Positions 620 to 54,082 of a stretch of 64,000 nucleotides of DNA are shown here, in pieces. Below the pieces are notes generated by a model. The model was not told the origin of the DNA and made no database searches. It saw only the letters and a program-made list of their open reading frames with translations. The stretch is from Candidatus Moraniibacteriota bacterium (GTDB taxonomy: Bacteria; Patescibacteriota; Minisyncoccia; Moranbacterales; UBA1568), in NCBI GenBank assembly GCA_963743885.1, contig CAVURJ010000001.1, positions 12,949 to 76,948 on the forward strand, read 5' to 3'. Both the position numbers and the translations under genes were made by a program. Within the stretch, counting starts at the first letter, position 1, and every line of letters starts with the position of its first letter.

Positions 620-1810
620 ATGCGTTTCTTCGACCTCCTCAAACTGTCGCTTCGAATGTTCAAGGCCCGCACCATGCGGACGCTCCTTACTATCCTCGGC
701 ATGTCAGTCGGCATCGCAGCCATCATCTTCCTCGTTTCCTTCGGCTACGGCCTCCAGCGGACACTGCTCCAGAAGATCACGACTTCCGACGCGCTCGTCA
801 GCCTCGACGTCACCGCGGGCAAGGAAGGTGGGCCCGACAAACTCGATAGCACTGCTATCGACGACCTACGCCTCATCCCAGACGTAACAGACGTCATCCC
901 AGTCCTCGAGCTCGCCGGCCAAGGCCGTTTCGACGGGATCACGCTTGATATCAATACCGTCAGCTCCGAAGCTTCACTCCTCAAGATTGAAGGTCTCAAG
1001 GTCACGGAGGGACGACTCCTCGACAAAGGCGAGACTCAAGGCATCGTCATCACCACAGCTGTCGCACAGGTCTTCAATACGACCCCGGACAAGATGATCG
1101 GCCGCCCGGTTGACCTGACCCTCTTCCGCGACAAGGATAGCACCGGCAAGGAATCATCCTATAGTCCAGGCAAGCCATACACTATCGTCGGCGTCGTCTC
1201 GGGTGAAGAGAACATCGTCTACCTCCCGATCGCATCGCTTTCCGGATTCCAGATCGAAAGCTACACCAAGCTCAAGGTGAAATGCCAGTCGACTGGCGTC
1301 ATGGGCCAGGTCCGCAGCGAAGTGGAGAATCGCGGCTTCATCGCCTCGTCCATCTCCGAGACCATCGACCAGGCCAACAAAGTCTTCCGCGCCGTCCAGA
1401 TCGTCCTCATGGTCTTCGGCATGATCGCGCTCATCGTCTCGGCTATCGGTATGTTCAACACCATGACCATCGCCCTCCTCGAGCGTACTGAGGAGATCGG
1501 CATCATGAAGGCCATCGGCGCCTCACGCGGCAGCATCTCACTCATGTTCATTATGGAATCAACGCTCATGGGCTTCCTTGGCGCCTTAGGTGGCGTCGTC
1601 CTTGGTATCATCGAAGGTCAGGTGCTCAATATCCTTATCAATGCCGTCGCGACCCGCTTCGGCGGCGAATCCGTCAGCCTCTTCTACAGTCCACTCTGGT
1701 TCATCTCGACCGTCATCGGCTTCGGCGCCTTCGTCGGATTCTTGACCGGCCTCTTCCCGGCCCGCAAGGCCTCAAGCATCGATACCCTCGAAGCACTCCG
1801 ATACAAGTAG
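620..1810 (+). CDS. ABC transporter permease, FtsX/MacB-like (periplasmic domain plus C-terminal 4-TM FtsX domain)
   Basis: 396 aa. N-terminal TM helix, large extracytoplasmic domain, and a C-terminal FtsX-type TM bundle (MKAIGASRGSI...). There is no ATPase gene downstream, so the partner is presumably upstream of the window. Confidence 0.8.
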   Translation: MRFFDLLKLSLRMFKARTMRTLLTILGMSVGIAAIIFLVSFGYGLQRTLLQKITTSDALVSLDVTAGKEGGPDKLDSTAIDDLRLIPDVTDVIPVLELAGQGRFDGITLDINTVSSEASLLKIEGLKVTEGRLLDKGETQGIVITTAVAQVFNTTPDKMIGRPVDLTLFRDKDSTGKESSYSPGKPYTIVGVVSGEENIVYLPIASLSGFQIESYTKLKVKCQSTGVMGQVRSEVENRGFIASSISETIDQANKVFRAVQIVLMVFGMIALIVSAIGMFNTMTIALLERTEEIGIMKAIGASRGSISLMFIMESTLMGFLGALGGVVLGIIEGQVLNILINAVATRFGGESVSLFYSPLWFISTVIGFGAFVGFLTGLFPARKASSIDTLEALRYK

Positions 1811-1851
1811 AAAACGTATTACGTATATCGTAGTATGTATCACGTATAAAT

Positions 1852-1881
1852 AAGCAGCGGATCATCCGCTGCTTATTTTTT
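1852..1881 (+). terminator. rho-independent terminator of the permease gene
   Basis: The hairpin aagcagcgg-atcat-ccgctgctt is followed by atttttt. Confidence 0.75.
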
Positions 1882-1964
1882 ACCCATAGAAAAACCCGCC
1901 GATACAACACGTGGAGAGTTTCTCTACGCCTGTTGCGGCGGGTTGGTAGGAACGAGCTGATTTC

Positions 1965-2285
1965 TCAGCTGCCCCCAGTGATAGGTTCGTCCGAAGACGT
2001 GACCACGAGACCTTCAAGCACTGTGGTTTTCAGACACCTGGGATGCCAGCACTTCTGTACCACATACGGATGCATACGACTGGGACCGTAACTGAAATCT
2101 GGCGTCTCATCGTGGATCTGCACCGTCAGCCGACTACCGCACTTGGGACAGTGTTGGAAGCCACCGGCAGAATGAATCACAGCAGCGATGAAGACAGTGA
2201 ATGCAAACAAGCAAACAGCAACCTGCAACAGTCCGAACAGCAAAGTCACAATGGCAGCAATCAGCAGAATAAACAGGAACGGCAT
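1965..2285 (-). CDS. hypothetical small membrane protein with a zinc-ribbon-like Cys cluster
   Basis: 106 aa. Hydrophobic N-terminal half, then CPKCGSRL...CWHPRC. Confidence 0.35.
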   Translation of the reverse strand: MPFLFILLIAAIVTLLFGLLQVAVCLFAFTVFIAAVIHSAGGFQHCPKCGSRLTVQIHDETPDFSYGPSRMHPYVVQKCWHPRCLKTTVLEGLVVTSSDEPITGGS

Positions 2286-2380
2286 GATGACCCCCTCGGG
2301 AATGAACCAAAAAGATAAAGAATTGGTTGTTAATGCACTTCAAAAGAATATAGCATATTTTTATCATTCTGTCAATATTA

Positions 2381-2407
2381 CGTAATAAAAACGGCTCAAA
2401 AGAGCCG
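2381..2407 (-). terminator. intrinsic terminator downstream of the P-type ATPase gene (minus strand)
   Basis: cggctc-aaaa-gagccg hairpin. The T-run is on the minus strand (aataaaaa on plus). Confidence 0.55.
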
Positions 2408-2534
2408 CTATATCCAAACCTATCCTCCCTTAACTCTATCTTTGCCCTGTACTCTTTACCCTCTCTGTCTTTCTACACCCTAAACCCTATCATCTATACC
2501 CTGCCCTTTCTACACCCTAACCCCTATCCCCTGT

Positions 2535-4304
2535 TCAGTACGTCGAGCGAAGCGCATTGACGATCACAATGACGTCGATGACCTCCTGGAGGATGGCGCC
2601 ATAGAGCGGCGGTATATAGCCAGCCGAAGCGATGAGCATACCAGCCGATGAAAGCCCGATGCCAAGCATGATGCTCTGGAACGCGACGTGGTAGGAGCGG
2701 CGGCCGATATGCACCGCATCGCGGATGAGCCAAGCGTCGCGGCCGAGGATAGCAACATCCGCTGCCTCGATTGACGCACTGTTCTCCGTGCCCGAAAAGA
2801 CGATGCCAACATCAGCGAGCGCCAGCGCCGGCGCGTCGTTCATGCCATCCCCGATCATACCAACCAGCTCCCCCTCTCCTTGATAACGCTTAACCAGTGT
2901 CGTCTTCTTTTCTGGGCTGCAATCAGCGTAGATCGGGATCCGAAAATGCCCGAAGATGCGCTCAGCATTCGCTTTGCGATCACCAGTCAATATACCAAGG
3001 CTATAGCCACGCTCCCTGAGATAATCGAAGACCTTGGCGCTCCCTGCCTTGAGCTCGTCATCGAAATAGAAGCGGGCGATCCGATGTTCGCCCGAGAGCA
3101 GATCCACAACGATGCCATTATCCTTTGCATCTTCCGCTTTCACGATGCCATAACGCTGGCCAGCAATCGTCCCGAAGATACCCTTCCCGATGACCTCTTC
3201 CACATCCTCGGCGAAGAACCGTTCCTCACCATGCACCGCGTGCGCCTCAATGAACGCCTTGGCAAGCGGATGGAAAGAGTGCCACTCGAGCGCCGCCGCG
3301 AGCGCGAGCGCCCCATCCTTATCGATATGCTTGTCAGACAGCTCGATCCGCTCGAGGTGCGGCACGCCGAGCGTGAGCGTCCCGGTCTTGTCGAAGAAGA
3401 AACGCTTGGTCCGCGCTAGAAGCTCGAGCGCGTACGGGCCCTTGATGATAATATTCTTGCGCGCTGCCTTGTTAAGCCCGCCGATAAAGGAGAGCGGCGC
3501 CGCGATGAGGAGTGGGCACGGCGTCGCGATGACGAGCACCGCCAAGAACCGTCCCCAATCCCCGGAAACGGCATATGCCGCAAAAGCGACTGCCAAAGAA
3601 AATACCGTAAAATAGCCATTATATCGTTCCGCGAGACGCCCCAGAGGCGACGGATGCGTCTTGCCCTCTTCGACCAGGCCCAAGATCCGTCGGTAGCTCG
3701 AATGCTCGAAGTCGCCCTTCACGCGAAGCTCCGCCGTCTCACCGACGTTGATGATGCCGCCCTTGAGGAGCGTGCCATGCTCATAGACGACCGGCTCCAT
3801 CTCGCCCGTCAGGTTCGCCTCATTGAAGAGGCCTTTCTCCGAAACAAGTGTCCCATCAATAGCGATCATCTCGCCGCGCTTCACAATGATGACATCGCCC
3901 GGACGCGCGTCCTGGAGCGCTACATTCTCCGTACCCTGCCCAACCTTCCGAAGCACCGTCTTCGGGATATTCTCGAAAAGGCCACGAAGCGTCTTTTCTG
4001 CCCGCGTCGTGCCATACTTCTCGAGCGCCGCCGAGACCGCCACCATGAGCGCCACGACCGCACCCGGCAGCATCTCGCCGAGTGTGAGTGACAGTGCAAG
4101 CGCGATGAACGCCAGATAATCGAGGTTCCACTTCTTCATCCGCAGACGCTCCCATGATTCCCATGCGAGAGATATGAGTCCGGCCGCGATCATGGCTGCA
4201 TAAGCAATCGCGGAATCCGTAGCCAAAGCAAATATGAGCACGATCGCAAGTACAATCGGAAAATGAAACTCTCGACTCTTCAGGATATCAAATACGGATA
4301 TCAT
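2535..4304 (-). CDS. P-type cation-transporting ATPase, P1B-like (CPx motif), without an N-terminal HMA domain
   Basis: 589 aa. Phosphorylation motif FFFDKTGTLT, hinge GDGMNDAPALA, and TM CPx motif ATPCPLLIAAP. Confidence 0.85.
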   Translation of the reverse strand: MISVFDILKSREFHFPIVLAIVLIFALATDSAIAYAAMIAAGLISLAWESWERLRMKKWNLDYLAFIALALSLTLGEMLPGAVVALMVAVSAALEKYGTTRAEKTLRGLFENIPKTVLRKVGQGTENVALQDARPGDVIIVKRGEMIAIDGTLVSEKGLFNEANLTGEMEPVVYEHGTLLKGGIINVGETAELRVKGDFEHSSYRRILGLVEEGKTHPSPLGRLAERYNGYFTVFSLAVAFAAYAVSGDWGRFLAVLVIATPCPLLIAAPLSFIGGLNKAARKNIIIKGPYALELLARTKRFFFDKTGTLTLGVPHLERIELSDKHIDKDGALALAAALEWHSFHPLAKAFIEAHAVHGEERFFAEDVEEVIGKGIFGTIAGQRYGIVKAEDAKDNGIVVDLLSGEHRIARFYFDDELKAGSAKVFDYLRERGYSLGILTGDRKANAERIFGHFRIPIYADCSPEKKTTLVKRYQGEGELVGMIGDGMNDAPALALADVGIVFSGTENSASIEAADVAILGRDAWLIRDAVHIGRRSYHVAFQSIMLGIGLSSAGMLIASAGYIPPLYGAILQEVIDVIVIVNALRSTY

Positions 4305-11478: not shown

Positions 11479-11509
11479 CCGATATGGAATTCCATATCGG
11501 TCTTTTTTT
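11479..11509 (+). terminator. terminator (perfect 22-bp palindrome plus T-run)
   Basis: ccgatatggaattccatatcgg followed by tcttttttt. Confidence 0.75.
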
Positions 11510-11651: not shown

Positions 11652-12392
11652 CTACTTCTCAGCAATCTCCACGCTCTTCACAACGACCGGCGTGACTGGA
11701 GAGGATCCCTCGCCGCCCGCCTTGGTCGGCGCATCAGCGATGGTGTCGACAGCCTCGAGGCCCGAGACGACATGGCCGAAGATCACATAGTTCGGCGGAA
11801 GCGGATAATCCTTGTGCATGATGAAGAACTGGCTACCGTTGGTATCCGGACCGGCGTTCGCCATCGCGATCGTGCCGCGGGTATACTGCCCCGTAAACGG
11901 CTCGTCATCGAAGCGGTAGCCCGGGCCGCCCATGCCCGTCCCCTGTGGATCTCCACCCTGGATCATGAAGCCAGGAATCGTCCGATGGAAGATCGTCCCA
12001 TCATAGAACTTCTCACGAGCAAGGAACACGAAATTGTTGACTGTGATCGGCGTCGCTGCTGCTGCGAGCTCCACCACGATATCGCCTTGGTCCGTATGGA
12101 GTGTCGCGGTATACTGCTTCTTCGCATCGATCGTCATTGCTGGTGCCTGCATATAGGTCTTTCCTTTTAGAGAATTATCCGCCTGGACCGGCGGCGTCTG
12201 CTTCGCCTGGCTCTTCGCCTCGGCTGGTTTGTCTGCCGTCTTGTCGGCAGGCTTATCAAACGTCAGCCCCGACCCCTCGGACGATTTCTCAGTCCGTACC
12301 TCCGGCGTATCCATCGAACATCCCGCAAGCGCGATGCCGCCGATGATTGCCACTGCTATCTTTTTTCTCATACGCGTCTTTGTTACTAGCAC
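11652..12392 (-). CDS. cyclophilin-type peptidyl-prolyl cis-trans isomerase, lipoprotein
   Basis: 246 aa. Lipobox IALAGCS. Cyclophilin core FHRTIPGFMIQGGDP...GPGYRFDDE...GTIAMANAGPDTNGSQFFI. Confidence 0.85.
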   Translation of the reverse strand: MLVTKTRMRKKIAVAIIGGIALAGCSMDTPEVRTEKSSEGSGLTFDKPADKTADKPAEAKSQAKQTPPVQADNSLKGKTYMQAPAMTIDAKKQYTATLHTDQGDIVVELAAAATPITVNNFVFLAREKFYDGTIFHRTIPGFMIQGGDPQGTGMGGPGYRFDDEPFTGQYTRGTIAMANAGPDTNGSQFFIMHKDYPLPPNYVIFGHVVSGLEAVDTIADAPTKAGGEGSSPVTPVVVKSVEIAEK

Positions 12393-12438
12393 ACTCCCAT
12401 CAGTATACTACATTCCCACGCACATGATACCGTTACCA

Positions 12439-12467
12439 TTGACAAGCAGCTAAAAAGGGTGTATAAT
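12439..12467 (+). promoter_or_regulatory. near-consensus sigma70 promoter (TTGACA-17 bp-TATAAT)
   Basis: TTGACA 12439-12444 and TATAAT 12462-12467, with no CDS downstream. The hexamers are verifiable by inspection. Whether this organism's sigma factor prefers them is an inference. Confidence 0.55.
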
Positions 12468-12473
12468 GGTATA

Positions 12474-12608
12474 CAGAAGTGCATAAAGCTAATTCGTCCA
12501 CAAAACCCGCCTGGTGGCAGTTGGGACGTAGTGCCCATAGTGGATTGGATATCTTGAAGCGCTTAAGGGCCTGTCTGAAACATTAGACAGGTCCTAGATT
12601 TTTTTTAA
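12474..12608 (+). ncRNA. candidate ~135-nt small RNA (promoter-to-terminator unit), identity unknown
   Basis: The transcript would start ~7 nt after the -10 element and end at the hairpin cctgtct-gaaacatt-agacagg followed by a T8 run at 12570-12608. It contains no ORF. I recognise no Rfam family by eye. Confidence 0.3.
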
Positions 12609-12794
12609 AAGCCTTTACCCTGTTACAAATCCACGAAAGATTTTCGATAACCGCCAACCCGAAGGCGAAGCCGCCTATCAGCTCTACCATTACACAACGC
12701 AAGCCCCTGCCTGATTTGTAATAGGGCTCCTGCCAAAAGTTGCCCTACCGAAAGCACGGCAATCGCCTTACAGAGATTCACTTCAAAAAAAGCC

Positions 12795-12823
12795 TTGACT
12801 TTTCCCATTTTTTGCGCTATACT
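12795..12823 (+). promoter_or_regulatory. second sigma70-like promoter (TTGACT-17 bp-TATACT)
   Basis: TTGACT 12795-12800 and TATACT 12818-12823. Confidence 0.5.
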
Positions 12824-12842
12824 TAAGAAGTTGAGAAGTGGA

Positions 12843-12884
12843 AACGGGTGAGAGATGTCATAATCTCGCCCGTTTTCTTTTTTC
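12843..12884 (+). terminator. attenuator-like intrinsic terminator about 20 nt downstream of the promoter
   Basis: 11-bp stem acgggtgagag / ctctcgcccgt (one G-U pair), 10-nt loop, followed by ttttcttttttc. Confidence 0.5.
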
Positions 12885-12935
12885 ATCAAGTCCCTTTAAA
12901 AAAGCCTCGGGACAGGCAAAAACAAAAAAGACGTA

Positions 12936-13115
12936 TGACAGAAGTACGTATGGAAGACACCCCAGTGGTGTCAGAGTGTTCGGGCCCTGATTGCCCGAAG
13001 TGCGCCAAAGCGGCTGCAGAAGCCGAGGAGTCAGAGAACACGAACTTCGCGTTCCTCCTCGCGATGCTCCCGGTGATCGCACTCACCTTCTTCGGACAGG
13101 CAGGACTCTTGTAAA
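12936..13115 (+). CDS. hypothetical tail-anchored small protein (59 aa) with a C-x4-C-x2-C motif
   Basis: MTEVRMEDTPVVSECSGPDCPKCAKAAAEAEESENTNFAFLLAMLPVIALTFFGQAGLL. Single C-terminal TM helix. Coding status uncertain. Confidence 0.35.
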
Positions 13116-13142
13116 AAAGACCCTCCCCTCTCCAACAAAAAA

Positions 13143-13169
13143 CCGCCCTACTAAAAGGGTGGTTTTTTT
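13143..13169 (+). terminator. rho-independent terminator
   Basis: ccgccct-actaaa-agggtgg (one G-U pair) followed by ttttttt. Confidence 0.65.
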
Positions 13170-13199
13170 ATTCTTCTCTTTCTTATCTATCACAATAAC

Positions 13200-13440
13200 A
13201 GGTACTGAGACCCAGAACCAGCCTGCCAGCCAAGCCGCCTCGATTCGAGTCAAAGCGGGCCCGCCTAACCGGCGAGGCTGGCCGCGGAATAACGGGTATT
13301 GCACCGCGGGACAAGCCCCGCATTACAGACAAGCTTCACTTGCCTTCCCCGCAGCAAGCTGCAGGGTATTGACCCGATTTTACCTGCGCTCCGTTCGGAA
13401 ACAAAAGTAAACTTTTGTTTCACTCACTACACTTGGTAAT
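13200..13440. ncRNA. candidate structured GC-rich RNA of about 240 nt, bounded by two terminators; identity unresolved
   Basis: No ORF. Nested complementary segments: ccagcc (13231) pairs with ggctgg (13274); cgcc-uaacc-ggcg hairpin; a perfect 10-bp hairpin gaaacaaaag-taaa-cttttgtttc (13399-13422). Weak resemblance to RNase P P4 strands (gagucaaagcgggcc; acagacaagcuu), not conclusive. Confidence 0.3.
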
Positions 13441-13471
13441 AAAACGATCCGCCAGCTGGCGGATCGTTTTT
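13441..13471. terminator. bidirectional terminator: perfect 26-bp palindrome aacgatccgccagctggcggatcgtt flanked by A-run and T-run
   Basis: aaa on the 5' side and ttt on the 3' side. The core atccgccagctggcggat is repeated at 47078-47095. Confidence 0.7.
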
Positions 13472-13559
13472 AGGGTCCAGGACTTGCCTACCCGAATCGC
13501 TACGCGAATCGTTGCGGGCGGGCTCCGGGGTAAATACCATTTATTTTCTAACTAAAATC

Positions 13560-14189
13560 TCAATCCTTCACTTTCCGGTAGTAGATACCAACGTCAGCGA
13601 TCCACTTCTTCACGCTCTCTGAGGTATGGGCCGAGCAGTTCCAGCCGCATTTCCAGACGATGAGCTCTTCTGGCGTATCAAACTCGTACTTCTTGACGAA
13701 GGTATCGATACGGCCGCCGACGACGCCCACGGCTTCCTCCGGACTGCCGAAGCAGCCGTGCCCCATAGCGATGCCACGCGAGCCTGCACCACGATAGCCC
13801 CAGTAGTTGTAGCAATCCTTGCCGTCCTCATCGACCGGCACGCGCTTACCCCAGTTACTTTCCTTCTTGGCAATGCCGACGAGAAAGGCAGCGGTCGTCT
13901 GGTCATACCGGGAGATGGATCGGGACATCCGTTCGATCGGAAAGCCAACGACGACCTTGTTCACGCGGCGCTCGAGCGCGGCATGAGGATCCGGAGCAGC
14001 GAAGACCGGTCCAGGGTCGAGCGAGACACGGAGCGTCGCACCATAGAGAGCCGTGGTCACAACGAAGCTTATGGCGATGAAGGCCACATAAGCGCCACGC
14101 GACGAGATAGCGAGCGGACGCGCGAGAAAAGCCTCGAACCGATCAAGCGCTCTTTGGATGATATTCTGATGTTTCTTTTTCTGTGTCAT
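13560..14189 (-). CDS. membrane-anchored peptidoglycan hydrolase, GH73 N-acetylglucosaminidase-like
   Basis: About 209 aa. N-terminal TM helix. Motifs AKKESNWGKR and CYNYWGYRG resemble the Glucosaminidase (FlgJ/GH73) family signatures ESGWG and NNLFGIK. Start taken at MTQKKK. Confidence 0.5.
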   Translation of the reverse strand: MTQKKKHQNIIQRALDRFEAFLARPLAISSRGAYVAFIAISFVVTTALYGATLRVSLDPGPVFAAPDPHAALERRVNKVVVGFPIERMSRSISRYDQTTAAFLVGIAKKESNWGKRVPVDEDGKDCYNYWGYRGAGSRGIAMGHGCFGSPEEAVGVVGGRIDTFVKKYEFDTPEELIVWKCGWNCSAHTSESVKKWIADVGIYYRKVKD

Positions 14190-14292
14190 AGGTGAGAAAA
14201 TGGCTTGAACAAGTAAAAAAGCGAGCACCCGGACGGCACCCGCTTCTTTAGTTCTACATACAGTATAGCACTTTTCCGGCCGAAAATCAAGC

Positions 14293-15642
14293 CTATCTCA
14301 CCTGAAGCGTCCCGCGGTACATGCCCATCGAACAACTGAAGGGTATCTTGCCAGCGCGAGTCGGCGTGAACTCGATGATGTTCTCTCCGGGTTTGAGACG
14401 GCGCTCAATGCCGAGCTCAGGGATGACAAATGACGACGCGCAACTATATGAATCCTCCGAATTGATGATGAGGCGCACCGGTACGCCGGCCGTGAGCTCG
14501 GGCAACGTGCTCGGGTGATAGCCGTCCGCATCCTGCGTCATGCGGATGACCTGGGCATCACCAGATGTGGTAGGATCCGTCGCCGCGGCAGGACTCTGGT
14601 CTCCACTCCATCCGAAGAGGTGCCAAGCGTTCCCAATATTCCAAAGGCCAAACGCGATAAGGACGACCGCGATGATCGCGAAGAAGACCCGGCGCATCCC
14701 GCCTTGGATTGCTGTGCCCAAACCACCGAACGCGAGCAGCCCTGGCATCGTACCGAGCGCGAAGACCGCCATGATAATCGCGCCAGCGAAAGTATCACCG
14801 AGTGTAATGACGGAAAGCTGCACTGCCTGTGTGAAACCGCACGGAAGAAAGAACGTGAGAGCGCCGGAAAGGAGGGCGCCGCGATGCGAATACCCGGCTC
14901 CGTCGTGGCGGCCTGCGCCAAGCATCCGGCTGATGGCTTTCGGCAGAGTGAATGAAAAATGGCTCAAACGAGGGAAAATATCCGAGAGCTGAAGACCGAT
15001 GAGCAGCATGACAAGACCGACCAAAAGGGTCAAAAAAGCCGTCGCGGAAAGTGAAAGCTGGAGCCGTTCGCCGAAGAGCCCAAGGAGAGCACCAAAGAAC
15101 GCGAAGCCGCCGACGCGTCCGGTATTGAACCAGAGTTGTGGGATGAATTTGTCACGGAAAGAGCGCTCGGGATGAAGCTCGCTGTAGCGGGCTGCGACGC
15201 CGAGCACGAGGCCGCCGACAATCGCCGCACAGGTAGAGATACCAGCTGCGAGACCAATCAGGAACACGAGGCCGAGTCGGGAGAGATCGAGCGTCTCGGA
15301 TCCGAAGGAAGCCGAGAGCCAGCCGAGATGGCCGAGCGCGAGGTATCCGACGAAGACAAGCGCGATCGCGAAGAGTGCCGCGACATATGCTTCGAGCTCG
15401 CGCGAGACGAGCGGTAGATGCCCTGCAGCATCTGCCACTGTATAGCCGGCCGTCTCAATGACAGCCCGCACCGCCTCTTCATCGGGCGCAGTACCGTCCG
15501 AGGCGATGATGATCGTCCCAGTCCTGTGGTTGGCTTCGGCCCGAGTGACATGCGCGATCTTTGCGAGCTCGCCTTCAAGCGTCAGTTCGCACGAGCGGCA
15601 GTGCATCCCAGAAACGAATATCTTTTGTTGTGGCATAAGCAA
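14293..15642 (-). CDS. fusion protein: N-terminal heavy-metal-associated (HMA) domain, TauE/SafE-type permease, C-terminal cupredoxin-like domain
   Basis: 449 aa. GMHCRSC (GMxCxxC) at the N-terminus. A 7-8 TM core. The C-terminal ...SYSCASSFVIPELGIERRLKPGENIIEFTPTRAGKIPFSCSMGMYRGTLQV matches the Cupredoxin_1 pattern. Confidence 0.65.
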   Translation of the reverse strand: MLMPQQKIFVSGMHCRSCELTLEGELAKIAHVTRAEANHRTGTIIIASDGTAPDEEAVRAVIETAGYTVADAAGHLPLVSRELEAYVAALFAIALVFVGYLALGHLGWLSASFGSETLDLSRLGLVFLIGLAAGISTCAAIVGGLVLGVAARYSELHPERSFRDKFIPQLWFNTGRVGGFAFFGALLGLFGERLQLSLSATAFLTLLVGLVMLLIGLQLSDIFPRLSHFSFTLPKAISRMLGAGRHDGAGYSHRGALLSGALTFFLPCGFTQAVQLSVITLGDTFAGAIIMAVFALGTMPGLLAFGGLGTAIQGGMRRVFFAIIAVVLIAFGLWNIGNAWHLFGWSGDQSPAAATDPTTSGDAQVIRMTQDADGYHPSTLPELTAGVPVRLIINSEDSYSCASSFVIPELGIERRLKPGENIIEFTPTRAGKIPFSCSMGMYRGTLQVR

Positions 15643-15699
15643 AAAGAAAAGTGGTACAGAAAGTATACCACATTCCCTCTTTCAAGCTCTTTTCTTGGC

Positions 15700-15759
15700 C
15701 TACAATCCAATCCCCTCAAGAAACATCTTCTTCGCAAGGCCGCGGAGCTGGCGGCTATT
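15700..15759. repeat. 60-bp perfect direct repeat, copy A (intergenic)
   Basis: ctacaatccaatcccctcaagaaacatcttcttcgcaaggccgcggagctggcggctatt is identical to 17982-18041. Confidence 0.9.
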
Positions 15760-15777
15760 ACCGAAGAGAATACAAAT

Positions 15778-16527
15778 TTATACCGTCTTCCAAATCATCT
15801 TGAAAATGCTCTTCTGAAGATCAGCAATAGATTGGTCGCGGATGAGAACACCTATCAACGTCCGAAACGAGATAAGCGCTATCGTATCGCCATAGATAAT
15901 GAGGTCAGTCTCGAAACGGAACCCCTCCGGTAGGACCTTGCTCTTCACGAAGTTATCGTACTGCTTCAGCTTGAGATGTGCCCTGGCTGCTTCGGAACGC
16001 TCAACCAAATTATAAAGCCGGCCACCGTTCTCATAGAGACGTGTAAGGAGAGCATCGTTCTGTTCTAGGGTAAATACCCCGTAGAACTTCTCAGGCGTGA
16101 AGAACGAATAAACATCCTTGTGTGTCTCGACGATCTGCCGATAGACATCCAAAAGTCCCTCGCGCCCCTCATAAAACGCTACCGTCGGATGCGACGATGC
16201 GAGCGCATAGAGCGATTCGAGCTCAGGCAGACATTCCCCTGCTACCCGACGCTTTTCCCGGATTACCGCTTCCTCACGATCGAGGTTATGGAGCAGCTTC
16301 TTCGGGTGCTCCGGAATATACAGTGTCCTCTTCTTGCGCACCGTCTGGGAGACCAGTCCGCCTTCAAGAAGCGCGTCGATATATTCGTACGCGGTCGTAC
16401 GCTTGATTCCCGCCTCGCGCGCGATATCAGACACCGTGGCCTCGCCAAGCCGAAGCACGGCTGCATAGGCGTCCGCCTCTTTGCCGGAGAGCCCGATCCG
16501 TTCCAGTTTTTTCAACAAGCTTTCCAT
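15778..16527 (-). CDS. TrmB-family transcriptional regulator
   Basis: 249 aa. N-terminal wHTH ...LSGKEADAYAAVLRLGEATVSDIAREAGIKRTTAYEYIDALLEGGLV... plus a C-terminal TrmB-type domain. Confidence 0.7.
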   Translation of the reverse strand: MESLLKKLERIGLSGKEADAYAAVLRLGEATVSDIAREAGIKRTTAYEYIDALLEGGLVSQTVRKKRTLYIPEHPKKLLHNLDREEAVIREKRRVAGECLPELESLYALASSHPTVAFYEGREGLLDVYRQIVETHKDVYSFFTPEKFYGVFTLEQNDALLTRLYENGGRLYNLVERSEAARAHLKLKQYDNFVKSKVLPEGFRFETDLIIYGDTIALISFRTLIGVLIRDQSIADLQKSIFKMIWKTV

Positions 16528-45883: not shown

Positions 45884-46425
45884 CATGTGATCCTCTTGTT
45901 TCCAAGACGCATGGACTATATCATCTCCATCGCACATTGCATTAGGAGTGAGGCGCTTCGACTTTTTGCAAAGCCTACTCTCTTGCGAGATAGTCTCTGA
46001 ACCTTCCCTCTCGGGCTTGGCTGCTGATTACCATAATCGCGCTGAACGATCTTAGGCTTCCAGCAATTCACCTCATTTATCACTTTCGGATTTCTCCGAA
46101 AGGCTGCGTAGTTTTTCATGCTCCTCCCTGTGGCAATTCGCGCATATCAGGGTGCATTTTTTCAGTTCTTTCTCAATCCGCTCCCAACTTCTTGTCAGGC
46201 CATCTTGAGATATACCGAAATCTTTCCTTCCATCAATATGATGGAATTCAAGAGCACCGAAACAGCGATTATACCCACAGCGGGAGCATTTTCCGCCTTT
46301 GTATTCGATAGCGCGCAGTCGCATCATCTTACGACGCTTTGCAACGGCCCGCTTCAAATACTCTCGACGGTCAGCATAGGTTCTTGTGTCTGGCATACAT
46401 AAATAAGTATACCACACATGTTTCC
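45884..46425 (-). other. group I (IC3-like) self-splicing intron within tRNA-Asn
   Basis: The 5' exon ends in U and the intron ends in G (omega-G, ...CACAUG|UAA...). The 3' core carries the P7/J6-7 hallmark sequences UUCAGAGACUA and GAUAUAGUCC, a P8-like hairpin CUCUCGCAAGAGAG, and a P9 hairpin GUCUUGG-AAA-CAAGAGGA. The ORF sits near the 5' end, in the P1/P2 region. Confidence 0.75.
46073..46417 (-). CDS. HNH homing endonuclease encoded inside the group I intron
   Basis: 114 aa. CSRCGY...FHHIDG...CANCH, an HNH motif with two CxxC pairs. GTG start is 6 nt after the 5' splice site; an internal Met (MPDTR) is the alternative. Confidence 0.7.
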   Translation of the reverse strand: MWYTYLCMPDTRTYADRREYLKRAVAKRRKMMRLRAIEYKGGKCSRCGYNRCFGALEFHHIDGRKDFGISQDGLTRSWERIEKELKKCTLICANCHREEHEKLRSLSEKSESDK

Positions 46426-47077: not shown

Positions 47078-47095
47078 ATCCGCCAGCTGGCGGAT
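47078..47095. repeat. 18-bp perfect palindrome ATCCGCCAGCTGGCGGAT (second copy)
   Basis: Identical to the core of the bidirectional terminator at 13441-13471. Confidence 0.7.
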
Positions 47096-53127: not shown

Positions 53128-53808
53128 CTACTTGAGACCGAACTCCTTCTTAAGCCAGTCATTATTCTCTATCTCCCCTGCCACGATATAGACAAGCTCT
53201 TTCCCCATCTTGTACTGAGCCTTGAGCAGCGCTATGACCCGCTCACACTCATACGGATACACCCACACGCTCTCCTGAAGCTTCACAAAACCAAATGAGC
53301 GCATATCCTCACGAGCATGATCCCTGAGGTGCCGCTTCTTCTCTTCAATATCAAAAATAACTATCCGCCATTTCCCATCCCAGCGCCAACGCTTGAGCGA
53401 TCGCTCTTTCAGCTGATACCGAAGCAATTCTTGCCGACCCTTTTCTGTCAGCCGAACCACTGTTTCACCATCTCTTAGAAAGATAGTCACCATCCCTCGA
53501 CGAGCAAGGCGTTTCACGGCTTCTCGAGCGAAAGCCTCAGAATAATAGCGCCGATGAAGCTTTTTCCCGCGCTTCTCAAATATTTTCACTGCCTGCACGA
53601 TATTCGGCGCTGCAAGTGCAATCGTCATCAAACCAGCAACTGCCACAGCCCCAAGCAAAGCCGACCCTACAAGACCATACGGGAGACGCTCCTTCTTTTC
53701 CTGCTTTCTTATCGATTTTCCCTGCCGATTCTTACTATCATCCGAAGTCGACTTTTCACTTTTCGAACCAGTTTTTTTCTTACCTGTTTCCATATGATTT
53801 ATTTTCAT
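53128..53808 (-). CDS. PaaX-like (PaaX_C domain) putative transcriptional regulator
   Basis: About 226 aa from MKINHMETG. C-terminal ...WRIVIFDIEEKKRHLRDHAREDMRSFGFVKLQESVWVYP resembles PaaX_C. The longer track ORF to 53952 would read through the upstream palindrome. Confidence 0.5.
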   Translation of the reverse strand: MKINHMETGKKKTGSKSEKSTSDDSKNRQGKSIRKQEKKERLPYGLVGSALLGAVAVAGLMTIALAAPNIVQAVKIFEKRGKKLHRRYYSEAFAREAVKRLARRGMVTIFLRDGETVVRLTEKGRQELLRYQLKERSLKRWRWDGKWRIVIFDIEEKKRHLRDHAREDMRSFGFVKLQESVWVYPYECERVIALLKAQYKMGKELVYIVAGEIENNDWLKKEFGLK

Positions 53809-53856
53809 ACGTCTTATTTTTTGTATTATACTACCTCCTCGTGCCACCCATCTCTC

Positions 53857-53894
53857 TGTACACATTTTACTACGGTCGTAGTAAAATGTGTACA
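53857..53894. promoter_or_regulatory. 38-bp perfect palindrome (copy 2), about 50 bp upstream of the PaaX-like gene start
   Basis: tgtacacattttactacg-gt-cgtagtaaaatgtgtaca. It differs from copy 1 only at symmetric positions and at the centre. Confidence 0.7.
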
Positions 53895-54082
53895 GTACAG
53901 AAAAAAAACGGTGGGGTGGTATTACTGGTGAGAAATAGAGGGAATAGCACAACGAGAGGAAGATTTATACTTAGTGAATCTCCCACAGGCTTACGCTCAG
54001 TGGTTTTTTGATATTCAAACAGCATAGCTGTTTGCCACACTTAAGTGCGAAGTGCCCCCATCCAACGGGCTTACGCCCGGGG

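Follow-up and report, generated by a model that had tools for sequence, protein, structure and literature searches.

Does an unusually long and seemingly gene-free interval in a compact bacterial genome act as one regulatory region, or did its parts come together independently? The interval in question spans positions 12393–13559 of the window, the 64,000-nucleotide stretch of contig CAVURJ010000001.1 analysed here, and is flanked by two minus-strand genes. They encode a cyclophilin-type peptidyl-prolyl isomerase (PPIase) lipoprotein (11652–12371) and a conserved 209-residue membrane protein with a weak likeness to the FlgJ muramidase domain (13560–14189). The named homologues of both flanking proteins belong to Candidatus Moranbacteria or Patescibacteria, and the host genome groups near Candidatus Moranbacteria, Patescibacteria, in these comparisons. 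A reading made from the letters alone (the sequence-only reading) had treated five elements of the interval as a single protein-poor regulatory region. The comparison with related loci, designated here by L numbers, makes it probable that the interval is instead a mosaic in which three independent units differ in evolutionary age. The first would be a small-RNA gene (12439–12608, plus strand), which among Moranbacteria-like Patescibacteria is restricted to a narrow clade. The second would be a micro-protein cassette (12795–13168, plus strand) that has been conserved at the level of the order or class, and the third a lineage-specific, hairpin-rich insert (13195–13545) that sits between two convergent genes. 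Read in this way, the locus illustrates that the long intergenic spaces of compact genomes can mix old and very recent insertions.

The description of the interval as protein-poor is partly right, since it contains one conserved gene of 54/59 codons. Six promoter-like sites are located between positions 11500 and 14500, compared to 1.8 ± 1.4 in shuffled sequences. Both promoters reported in the sequence-only reading are present, as are the first terminator and the leader hairpin (12832–12885). The interval as an unannotated degenerate gene was rejected: tblastx of positions 12393–13559 against all loci returned only the micro-protein, called p54 here, and a DNA-level match of a segment that we call core X. 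An open reading frame (ORF) of 139 codons at 12991–13410 is without a Pfam match.

Candidate small-RNA gene next to the PPIase gene

The sequence-only reading proposed a stand-alone small RNA (sRNA) downstream of the first promoter, and the promoter, body, and terminator of this element are conserved in four related contigs. The carriers are L146, L147, and L148/L149, which provide three distinct sequences (four with the window), and their PPIases are 87% (L146), 83% (L147), and 78% (L148/L149) identical to that of the window. In each of them the element occupies the same position and consists of a promoter, a body of approximately 92–101 nt, a hairpin, and a T8 run. Both promoter hexamers and their 17-nt spacing are preserved (TTGACA/T-17-TATAAT). 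The sequence of the terminator stem is replaced in L148/L149 with its pairing preserved, and the T-run is invariant. The body is 83/74/89% identical between the window and the relatives, compared to 81–85% for the PPIase coding sequence and 17–27% for the spacer that follows. No trace of the element was found in the distant relatives L003, L007, L011, and L151 (PPIase at most 74% identical), in which only approximately 90–100 nt separate the PPIase gene from the next promoter. We read this distribution as the apparent entry of the element into the intergenic space in a recent ancestor.

In the predicted fold, a long interrupted closing stem (AAGUGC/GCGCUU, AAG/CUU, and AUUCGUCCAC/GUGGAUUGGAU) encloses a strongly conserved apical domain of about 45 nt (CAAAACCC...GCAGUUGGGACGUAGUGCCCAUAG). 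The plus strand folds at −47.3 kcal/mol and the minus strand at −35.4 kcal/mol, with five and one G-U pairs, respectively. A coding function was ruled out by a frameshifting 1-nt indel within a conserved block, by substitutions that are few, located near the 5′ end, and would all be nonsynonymous, and by the invariance of the rest of the sequence at would-be wobble positions. An additional 9-nt indel lies within a variable hairpin. The element has its own conserved promoter and Rho-independent terminator, is non-coding, and is more conserved than its flanks. It is because of these properties, and not because of covariation, that we regard it as a real RNA gene, which belongs to no described family. 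It is considered stand-alone rather than a leader because it is followed by a non-conserved spacer and then by an independent, much older promoter.

Several results weigh against this interpretation. In the four sequences, a single compensatory double change (CCAC/GUGG to CCGC/GCGG) occurs next to four one-sided changes that preserve pairing, and covariation is short of significance, since the double-change count was reached by 138 and the covariation score by 82 of 500 shuffles. When folded by itself, the body is no more stable than shuffled sequences (z −1.15). Comparisons by RNAduplex with the 5′ regions of the p54, PPIase, and 209-residue protein genes in three genomes gave z values of −1.6 to +0.8, which are at chance level. 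Furthermore, the start site, abundance, and trans action of the RNA are predictions from the sequence.

The consensus sigma-70-type promoter would give rise to a transcript of approximately 135 nt, composed of the closing stem, the apical domain, and the intrinsic terminator, which would act in trans via base pairing or the binding of a protein. Control of a gene in cis is improbable, given the non-conserved spacer and the separate promoter that follow the element. A multi-stem conserved domain abutting an intrinsic terminator could also be an orphan riboswitch or cis leader, in which the apical domain binds a ligand and the terminator serves as the expression platform for the micro-protein gene, and the element is indeed always upstream of p54 and on the same strand in its four relatives. 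We nevertheless find this explanation very improbable. The DNA between the element and the next ORF measures 330 nt and contains an unalignable spacer, a separate conserved promoter, and a second terminator-like hairpin. The p54 cassette is present without the element in all the more distant relatives, no antiterminator pairing is evident, and no Rfam riboswitch matches.

As a stand-alone RNA gene, the element resembles the trans-encoded sRNAs of the Hfq or ProQ type in having its own promoter, a length of about 135 nt, a stem-loop with a U-run, no ORF, genus-level conservation, and a location between divergent or neighbouring genes. Unlike them, it is in no Rfam family (4227 families searched), is without a known target or chaperone, and is conserved in a 45-nt apical domain instead of a short seed. 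To our knowledge, Hfq is generally lacking in Patescibacteria. Kinship of the element with a look-alike promoter at 2347–2375, which has the start GAAGTGCAT in common with it, was rejected, since that promoter drives the gene of a 106-residue protein and the similarity does not extend further. Searches of phages, plasmids, and viral contigs gave no match or chance 15-mer matches. The spacer behind the element was likewise rejected as a structured RNA (z only −1.7 to −1.8 on either strand) and has no tblastx similarity. Upstream of the element, positions 12403–12410 (CAGTATAC; GTATACTG on the minus strand, −10-like TATACT) are invariant in all five close relatives and probably form the −10 box of a divergent PPIase promoter, arranged back to back with the small-RNA promoter.

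Micro-protein cassette and its leader hairpin

The small Cys-motif membrane protein predicted by the sequence-only reading is the product of a real gene, for which a profile search identified 311 homologues with lengths of 47–94 residues, most of them 50–60. All homologues with an organism name come from Moranbacteria or Patescibacteria, and tblastn showed that p54 adjoins the PPIase gene or the 209-residue protein gene in many loci. Translation from the ATG at 12935 gives a protein of 59 residues, and the ATG at 12950, selected by gene callers, one of 54 residues; the first ATG (MTEVRMED) is preserved in L145, L146, and L148. Both cysteines and the C-terminal ...LTFFGQxGLL are invariant in the six-sequence alignment A1. 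In relatives, analogous terminators are positioned 3′ of p54. Judged by these comparisons, p54 is a genuine gene that represents an uncharacterised, Patescibacteria-specific family of CxxC membrane micro-proteins.

Three of the homologues are labelled 'NapE component' by JGI. The protein is similar to NapE/TorE-type proteins in its small size, single transmembrane helix, and soluble N-terminal part. It differs from them in that neither p54 nor its homologues belong to a Pfam or NCBIfam family, in the C(P/T)xC motif, in the absence of nitrate reductase genes nearby, and in being found only in Patescibacteria. A NapE identity (PF06796-type) was rejected, as it has no profile match and is suggested only by the source label of those three homologues.

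The promoter-proximal attenuator arrangement noticed in the sequence-only reading is conserved in all of the approximately 30 loci with upstream DNA (25 distinct sequences), in the order TTGACT-17-TATAAT, 6–7 nt, GUUGAGAAGUGAAAAACGGGUG, a variable apical stem-loop, and CCCGUUUUUUCUUUCUCAAC. The promoter is 91–94% identical in close relatives and is recognisable at all p54 loci. The leader hairpin corresponds to inverted repeat I1, and the element of about 60 nt folds at −29 kcal/mol (z −6.6), with four G-U pairs on the plus strand and none on the minus strand. The covariance model R1, which was built from the leaders of twelve relatives, recovers every p54 locus and identifies the copy in the window with an E value of 5e-5. 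Eleven p54 leaders folded with z values of −5.6 to −8.7, and their pairing starts within 0–2 bases of the first base. The apical stems have unrelated sequences across lineages and pair in 25 of 25 leaders, with a mean z of −3.0, so that covariation is evident in this part of the leader. In addition, the lower stem GUUGAGA/UCUCAAC is changed to AUAGAGA/UCUCUAU in L023. A leader alignment by MAFFT put the apical stems out of register and was replaced by the folding of individual sequences and the covariance model.

The rest of the 5′ untranslated region (UTR) includes a second small hairpin, the stem of which is altered to GCCUG/CAGGC in L001, GCCUGC/GCAGGC in L002, and GCCC/GGGC in L007. No Shine-Dalgarno sequence is visible in the p54 5′ UTR. 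Directly after the leader hairpin, positions 12891–12903 of the window read UCCCUUUAAAAAA. In L001 (approximately 1885–1900), L002, L096, and L099, the sequence CUCUUUAACAA is located just 3′ of the leader hairpin; it matches 11 of 12 positions of what we take to be the boxA of E. coli rrn, a NusB/NusE site.

A conserved GC-rich hairpin with a U-tract is thus positioned between the promoter and the start codon. This core is built like an intrinsic terminator, at which a fraction of the transcripts would be expected to end; this would amount to attenuation. Because the portion of the lower helix past the U-tract cannot aid termination, the extension of the helix to the first base would matter only in the read-through mRNA, where it may protect the 5′ end from decay. 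In this model, the leader has the form of both an intrinsic-terminator attenuator and a 5′-terminal stabiliser. Since the hairpin begins at the predicted +1, no antiterminator is possible upstream of it, and any relief of termination would therefore depend on a trans-acting factor or on properties of the polymerase. A riboswitch was rejected as an explanation of the leader, because its apical region varies freely and there is no sequence 5′ of the hairpin.

The leader resembles pyrG/pyrBI-type attenuators and terminator-type riboswitch platforms in having a GC-rich stem and a U-tract between the promoter and the ORF that are conserved together with the gene. It differs from them in that there is no upstream sequence from which an antiterminator or aptamer could arise, the length of the apical part ranges from 11 to approximately 70 nt, and the helix reaches down to +1. 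Like the stabilising stem-loops of ompA (E. coli) and aprE (B. subtilis), for which the role of 5′-terminal protective stem-loops is established, the leader starts within 1–2 nt of the predicted 5′ end. Protection from 5′-end-dependent RNases requires a stem-loop at or near the 5′ end. In contrast to the leader, the ompA and aprE stem-loops are without a U-tract and are not terminator-like, and the start of the leader is deduced from promoter spacing, with the stem beginning 6–7 nt past the −10 hexamer in all loci.

The hairpin could act as a 5′ stabiliser or insulator only, without attenuation, which would agree with a helix that reaches the predicted +1 and runs past the U-tract in a way that is useless for termination. 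Equally, its DNA could be an operator, with the inverted repeat GTTGAGAA...TTCTCAAC bound by a repressor, and both arms of the basal stem are near-invariant, as expected for a protein-binding site. We consider this pair of explanations possible but doubtful. The GC stem with an invariant U-tract of 8–13 nt is a canonical intrinsic terminator. The distance between the half-sites varies with the apical part from approximately 25 to 90 nt, which argues against a dimeric DNA-binding protein, and the G-U pairs are confined to the sense strand. The combined attenuator and stabiliser form is preferred, and the points against it are that the near-invariant basal stem hardly covaries, that the sequence would also accommodate a role at the level of DNA, such as that of an operator, and that relief of termination has no structural basis in the leader, as no alternative structure is possible upstream of the hairpin. 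Termination and stabilisation, as well as the regulon discussed below, are likewise deduced from sequence features.

Leaders of the same type in two other envelope protein genes

The gene of the 209-residue protein is preceded by a leader with the same layout as that of p54, consisting of a promoter, six nucleotides, and a hairpin, and with the same (A/G)CGGGUG arm. This leader is preserved in L081, L082, L145, L098, and L099/L100. The two leaders of this gene that were folded have z values of −5.0 and −5.5, and their pairing likewise starts within 0–2 bases of the first base. A leader of this type also precedes the CAP-domain gene that follows the 209-residue protein gene in L081 and L144. 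In both families, the co-directional gene that lies in front is followed by no terminator-like structure other than the leader hairpin, and the promoter is therefore nested between the stop codon and the terminator of that gene. When approximately 1 Mb of related loci were scanned, a promoter-proximal (A/G)CGGGUG...CCCGUUUU was present only at the p54, 209-residue protein, and CAP families, and ordinary 3′ terminators in the same genomes are without the (A/G)CGGGUG motif.

This distribution suggests a common factor or regulon for envelope proteins, namely p54, the muramidase-like 209-residue protein, and the CAP protein. Two points tell against it: the shared motif was established by a regular-expression scan together with weak model matches (E 0.025–0.6), and the 209-residue protein leader of the window itself has no covariance-model match at E values up to 1. 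The more far-reaching proposal, a new class of factor-dependent attenuators that defines an envelope regulon of Moranbacteria-like bacteria, with the small RNA as a trans-acting partner modulating the p54 cassette, is one that we regard as highly unlikely.

Metal and redox genes are located beside the 209-residue protein gene on the minus strand (14293–16527), and encode a membrane protein with HMA, DsbD_2, and cupredoxin domains and a TrmB-like regulator. At L144, an HMA P-type ATPase is positioned beside the 209-residue protein gene (1027–3381). Together with the CxxC micro-protein, these neighbours hint at a copper or redox theme of the envelope.

Hairpin-rich insert between convergent genes

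At locus L145, whose 209-residue protein is 71% identical to that of the window, the convergent p54 and 209-residue protein genes are separated by 140 nt that include two ordinary terminators. In an alignment to this empty site, the window contains approximately 345 extra nucleotides that replace a 45-nt terminator, with boundaries near 13190 and 13539. The sequence-only reading placed a GC-rich structured segment at 13200–13440. Its structured character and the lack of a convincing ORF hold, and the extent is corrected to approximately 13195–13545, with the better fold on the minus strand. The minus strand folds at −169.5 kcal/mol (z −7.2, range −7.2 to −8.6) and the plus strand at −135.9 kcal/mol (z −4.5, range −4.5 to −5.6), with 17 and four G-U pairs, respectively. 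As a pseudogene, the insert was rejected because it has no translated similarity (tblastx) to genes of related loci.

The central part of the insert, the 91-nt core X, has a counterpart in L081, the closest relative on the 209-residue protein side (88%). Core X is 89% identical between the two, compared to 81% for the adjacent 209-residue protein gene, and has the same orientation relative to that gene. Its hairpin at 13398–13421 retains pairing in L081 through a double change from A-T to G-C. In L081, core X is found at a distance of 2.4 kb, past an inserted AbiE toxin-antitoxin pair and a CAP gene. The modules that flank it there are in a different order and at the end of a contig. The inserted DNA at L081 (3669–4597) comprises a DUF6922 and AbiEii toxin-antitoxin pair directly after the 209-residue protein gene, followed by an 84-nt duplicate of the 3′ end of that gene. 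A small plus-strand ORF, 13299–13439, spans core X, and its last 21 codons are preserved in L081 (..ILPALRSETKVNF[C/R]FTHYTW*). Three of the five differences in these codons are at third positions, and two of the five (one third, one first) form the compensatory pair of the hairpin; the ORF has no promoter or ribosome-binding site.

The palindrome that borders core X is perfect and its core recurs in the window, as the sequence-only reading stated, and its length is 30 nt rather than 26. The stem lies approximately 90 nt past the stop codon of the 209-residue protein gene and the end of its U-tract approximately 120 nt. The 18-nt core, ATCCGCCAGCTGGCGGAT, is found again at 47078–47095, where it is also terminator-like; this second copy suggests a small recurrent palindromic module. 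The palindrome is missing from the copy of core X in L081. In the window, it is probably the terminator of the 209-residue protein gene on the minus strand. The insert would have replaced an ordinary terminator, with its palindrome now terminating the gene.

Most likely, the insert is not an RNA gene but DNA that is mobile or derived from a repeat. It resembles REP/BIME, ERIC, and Correia-like repeats or miniature inverted-repeat transposable elements (MITEs) in being about 350 bp of stacked hairpins between convergent genes, in its variability among relatives, and in supplying a terminator. It differs from these in that a single copy is seen (64-kb window), there are no significant terminal repeats, and there is no target duplication. 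An assignment to MITEs in particular is unlikely. The clean insertion of approximately 345 bp relative to L145, the pairing of the ends of the insert in the predicted fold, a core X that is more conserved between two genomes than host genes are, and the related palindrome elsewhere in the window would all agree with such an element. Nevertheless, the score of the terminal inverted repeats was equalled by 27 of 500 shuffles and is not significant, no target-site duplication was recognised, and the window contains no second copy. Phage and plasmid collections gave no match, and the exact 19-nt core pattern is absent from viral contigs.

G-U pairs are in excess on the minus strand, and the core exceeds the neighbouring gene in conservation; both observations fit an RNA role and speak against mobile DNA. 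The insert could be a functional structured RNA of approximately 350 nt on the minus strand, either the 3′ UTR of the 209-residue protein gene or a product processed from it. The strand difference in folding, the orientation of core X that is shared with L081, and its one compensatory change would support this. We judge it to be even less probable than a MITE, and the structured RNA candidate of the sequence-only reading was not upheld as a conserved RNA gene. The insert is absent from L145, L146, L148, and L149. It contains no promoter-like site and is enclosed by two convergent terminators. The rearranged flanks in L081 preclude long-range helices, most transcripts should end at the palindrome, ahead of two thirds of the element, and Rfam has no match. 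Repeat-derived or mobile DNA accordingly ranks first among the explanations of the insert.

Known RNA families and novelty of the elements

The identities suggested for the RNAs in the sequence-only reading, 6S, SRP, RNase P, and tmRNA, are not borne out. A cmscan search of the whole window at the gathering score found only a group I intron outside the interval, and no family within it, and ARAGORN identified no tRNA or tmRNA genes in the window. When positions 12300–13700 were compared to Rfam at E values up to 10, only chance-level matches to terminator hairpins were obtained, and scans of the relatives L147 and L149 likewise gave no family. The RNase P-like motifs in the insert (GGCAAGUCC and CGGCUUG) are a superficial likeness by eye without Rfam support.

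The locus thus contributes two RNA elements with comparative support that are new to Rfam: a putative sRNA conserved at the level of a genus and a conserved 5′ hairpin, or attenuator, tied to a CxxC micro-protein of approximately 55 residues and common to two other envelope genes. Models of the two elements can be used to search metagenomes and metatranscriptomes. Bacteria of the candidate phyla radiation have tiny genomes and are not growable alone, and a full-text literature search found almost nothing on RNA-based regulation in them.

Features of the locus and of the remaining window

Table 1. Coordinates of the features in and around the interval, with the evidence on which each was called.
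Feature	Positions	Strand	Basis or remark
Promoter of the small-RNA gene, TTGACA-17-TATAAT	12439–12467	plus	12/12 consensus match
Body of the candidate small RNA, ~92 nt	12474–12565	plus	predicted folds and alignment of relatives
Intrinsic terminator of the candidate small RNA	12566–12608	plus	13-bp stem, T8 run; hairpin 12566–12595
Variable spacer	12609–12794		17–27% alignable among close relatives; no function detected
Promoter of the micro-protein gene, TTGACT-17-TATACT	12795–12823	plus	10/12 consensus match
5′-terminal leader hairpin and terminator core, GUUGAGAAG-UGGAAACGGGUG[apical stem]CCCGUUUUCUUUUUU-CAUCAA	12830–12889	plus	fold, covariance model
Second small 5′-UTR hairpin, GCCU-CGGGAC-AGGC, then A-rich tract to the start codon	12904–12917	plus	kept in relatives
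Micro-protein p54/p59	12935–13114	plus	acidic N-terminal part with C(P/T)xC, C-terminal transmembrane helix ending ...LTFFGQ(V/A)GLL
Bidirectional terminator after p54	13137–13168		13-bp stem, A6 before, T6 after
Lineage-specific hairpin-rich insert	13195–13545	minus	absent at the L145 empty site; fold statistics
Core X of the insert	13354–13444		89% identical to L081 5921–6012
Perfect 15+15 palindrome, bidirectional in form	13441–13470		inverted-repeat search
Promoter of the 209-residue protein gene, TTGATT-17-(TG)TATACT, and leader hairpin, AGAACUAAAGAAGCGGGUGCC...GGGUGCUCGCUUUUUUACUUGUUC	14213–14290	minus	outside the interval; z −5.5

The group I intron of the window is located on the minus strand at 45892–46127 (Rfam RF00028, 84.7 bits), with no tRNA called nearby. 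Directly 5′ of it, a minus-strand ORF of 114 codons (46073–46417) is HNH-endonuclease-like. On the plus strand at 53804–53900, a promoter-like site is followed by a perfect hairpin of 18 bp (CTGTACACATTTTACTAC / GTAGTAAAATGTGTACAG), with −33.9 kcal/mol in a fold of 80 nt, which lies within a minus-strand ORF of 274 codons.

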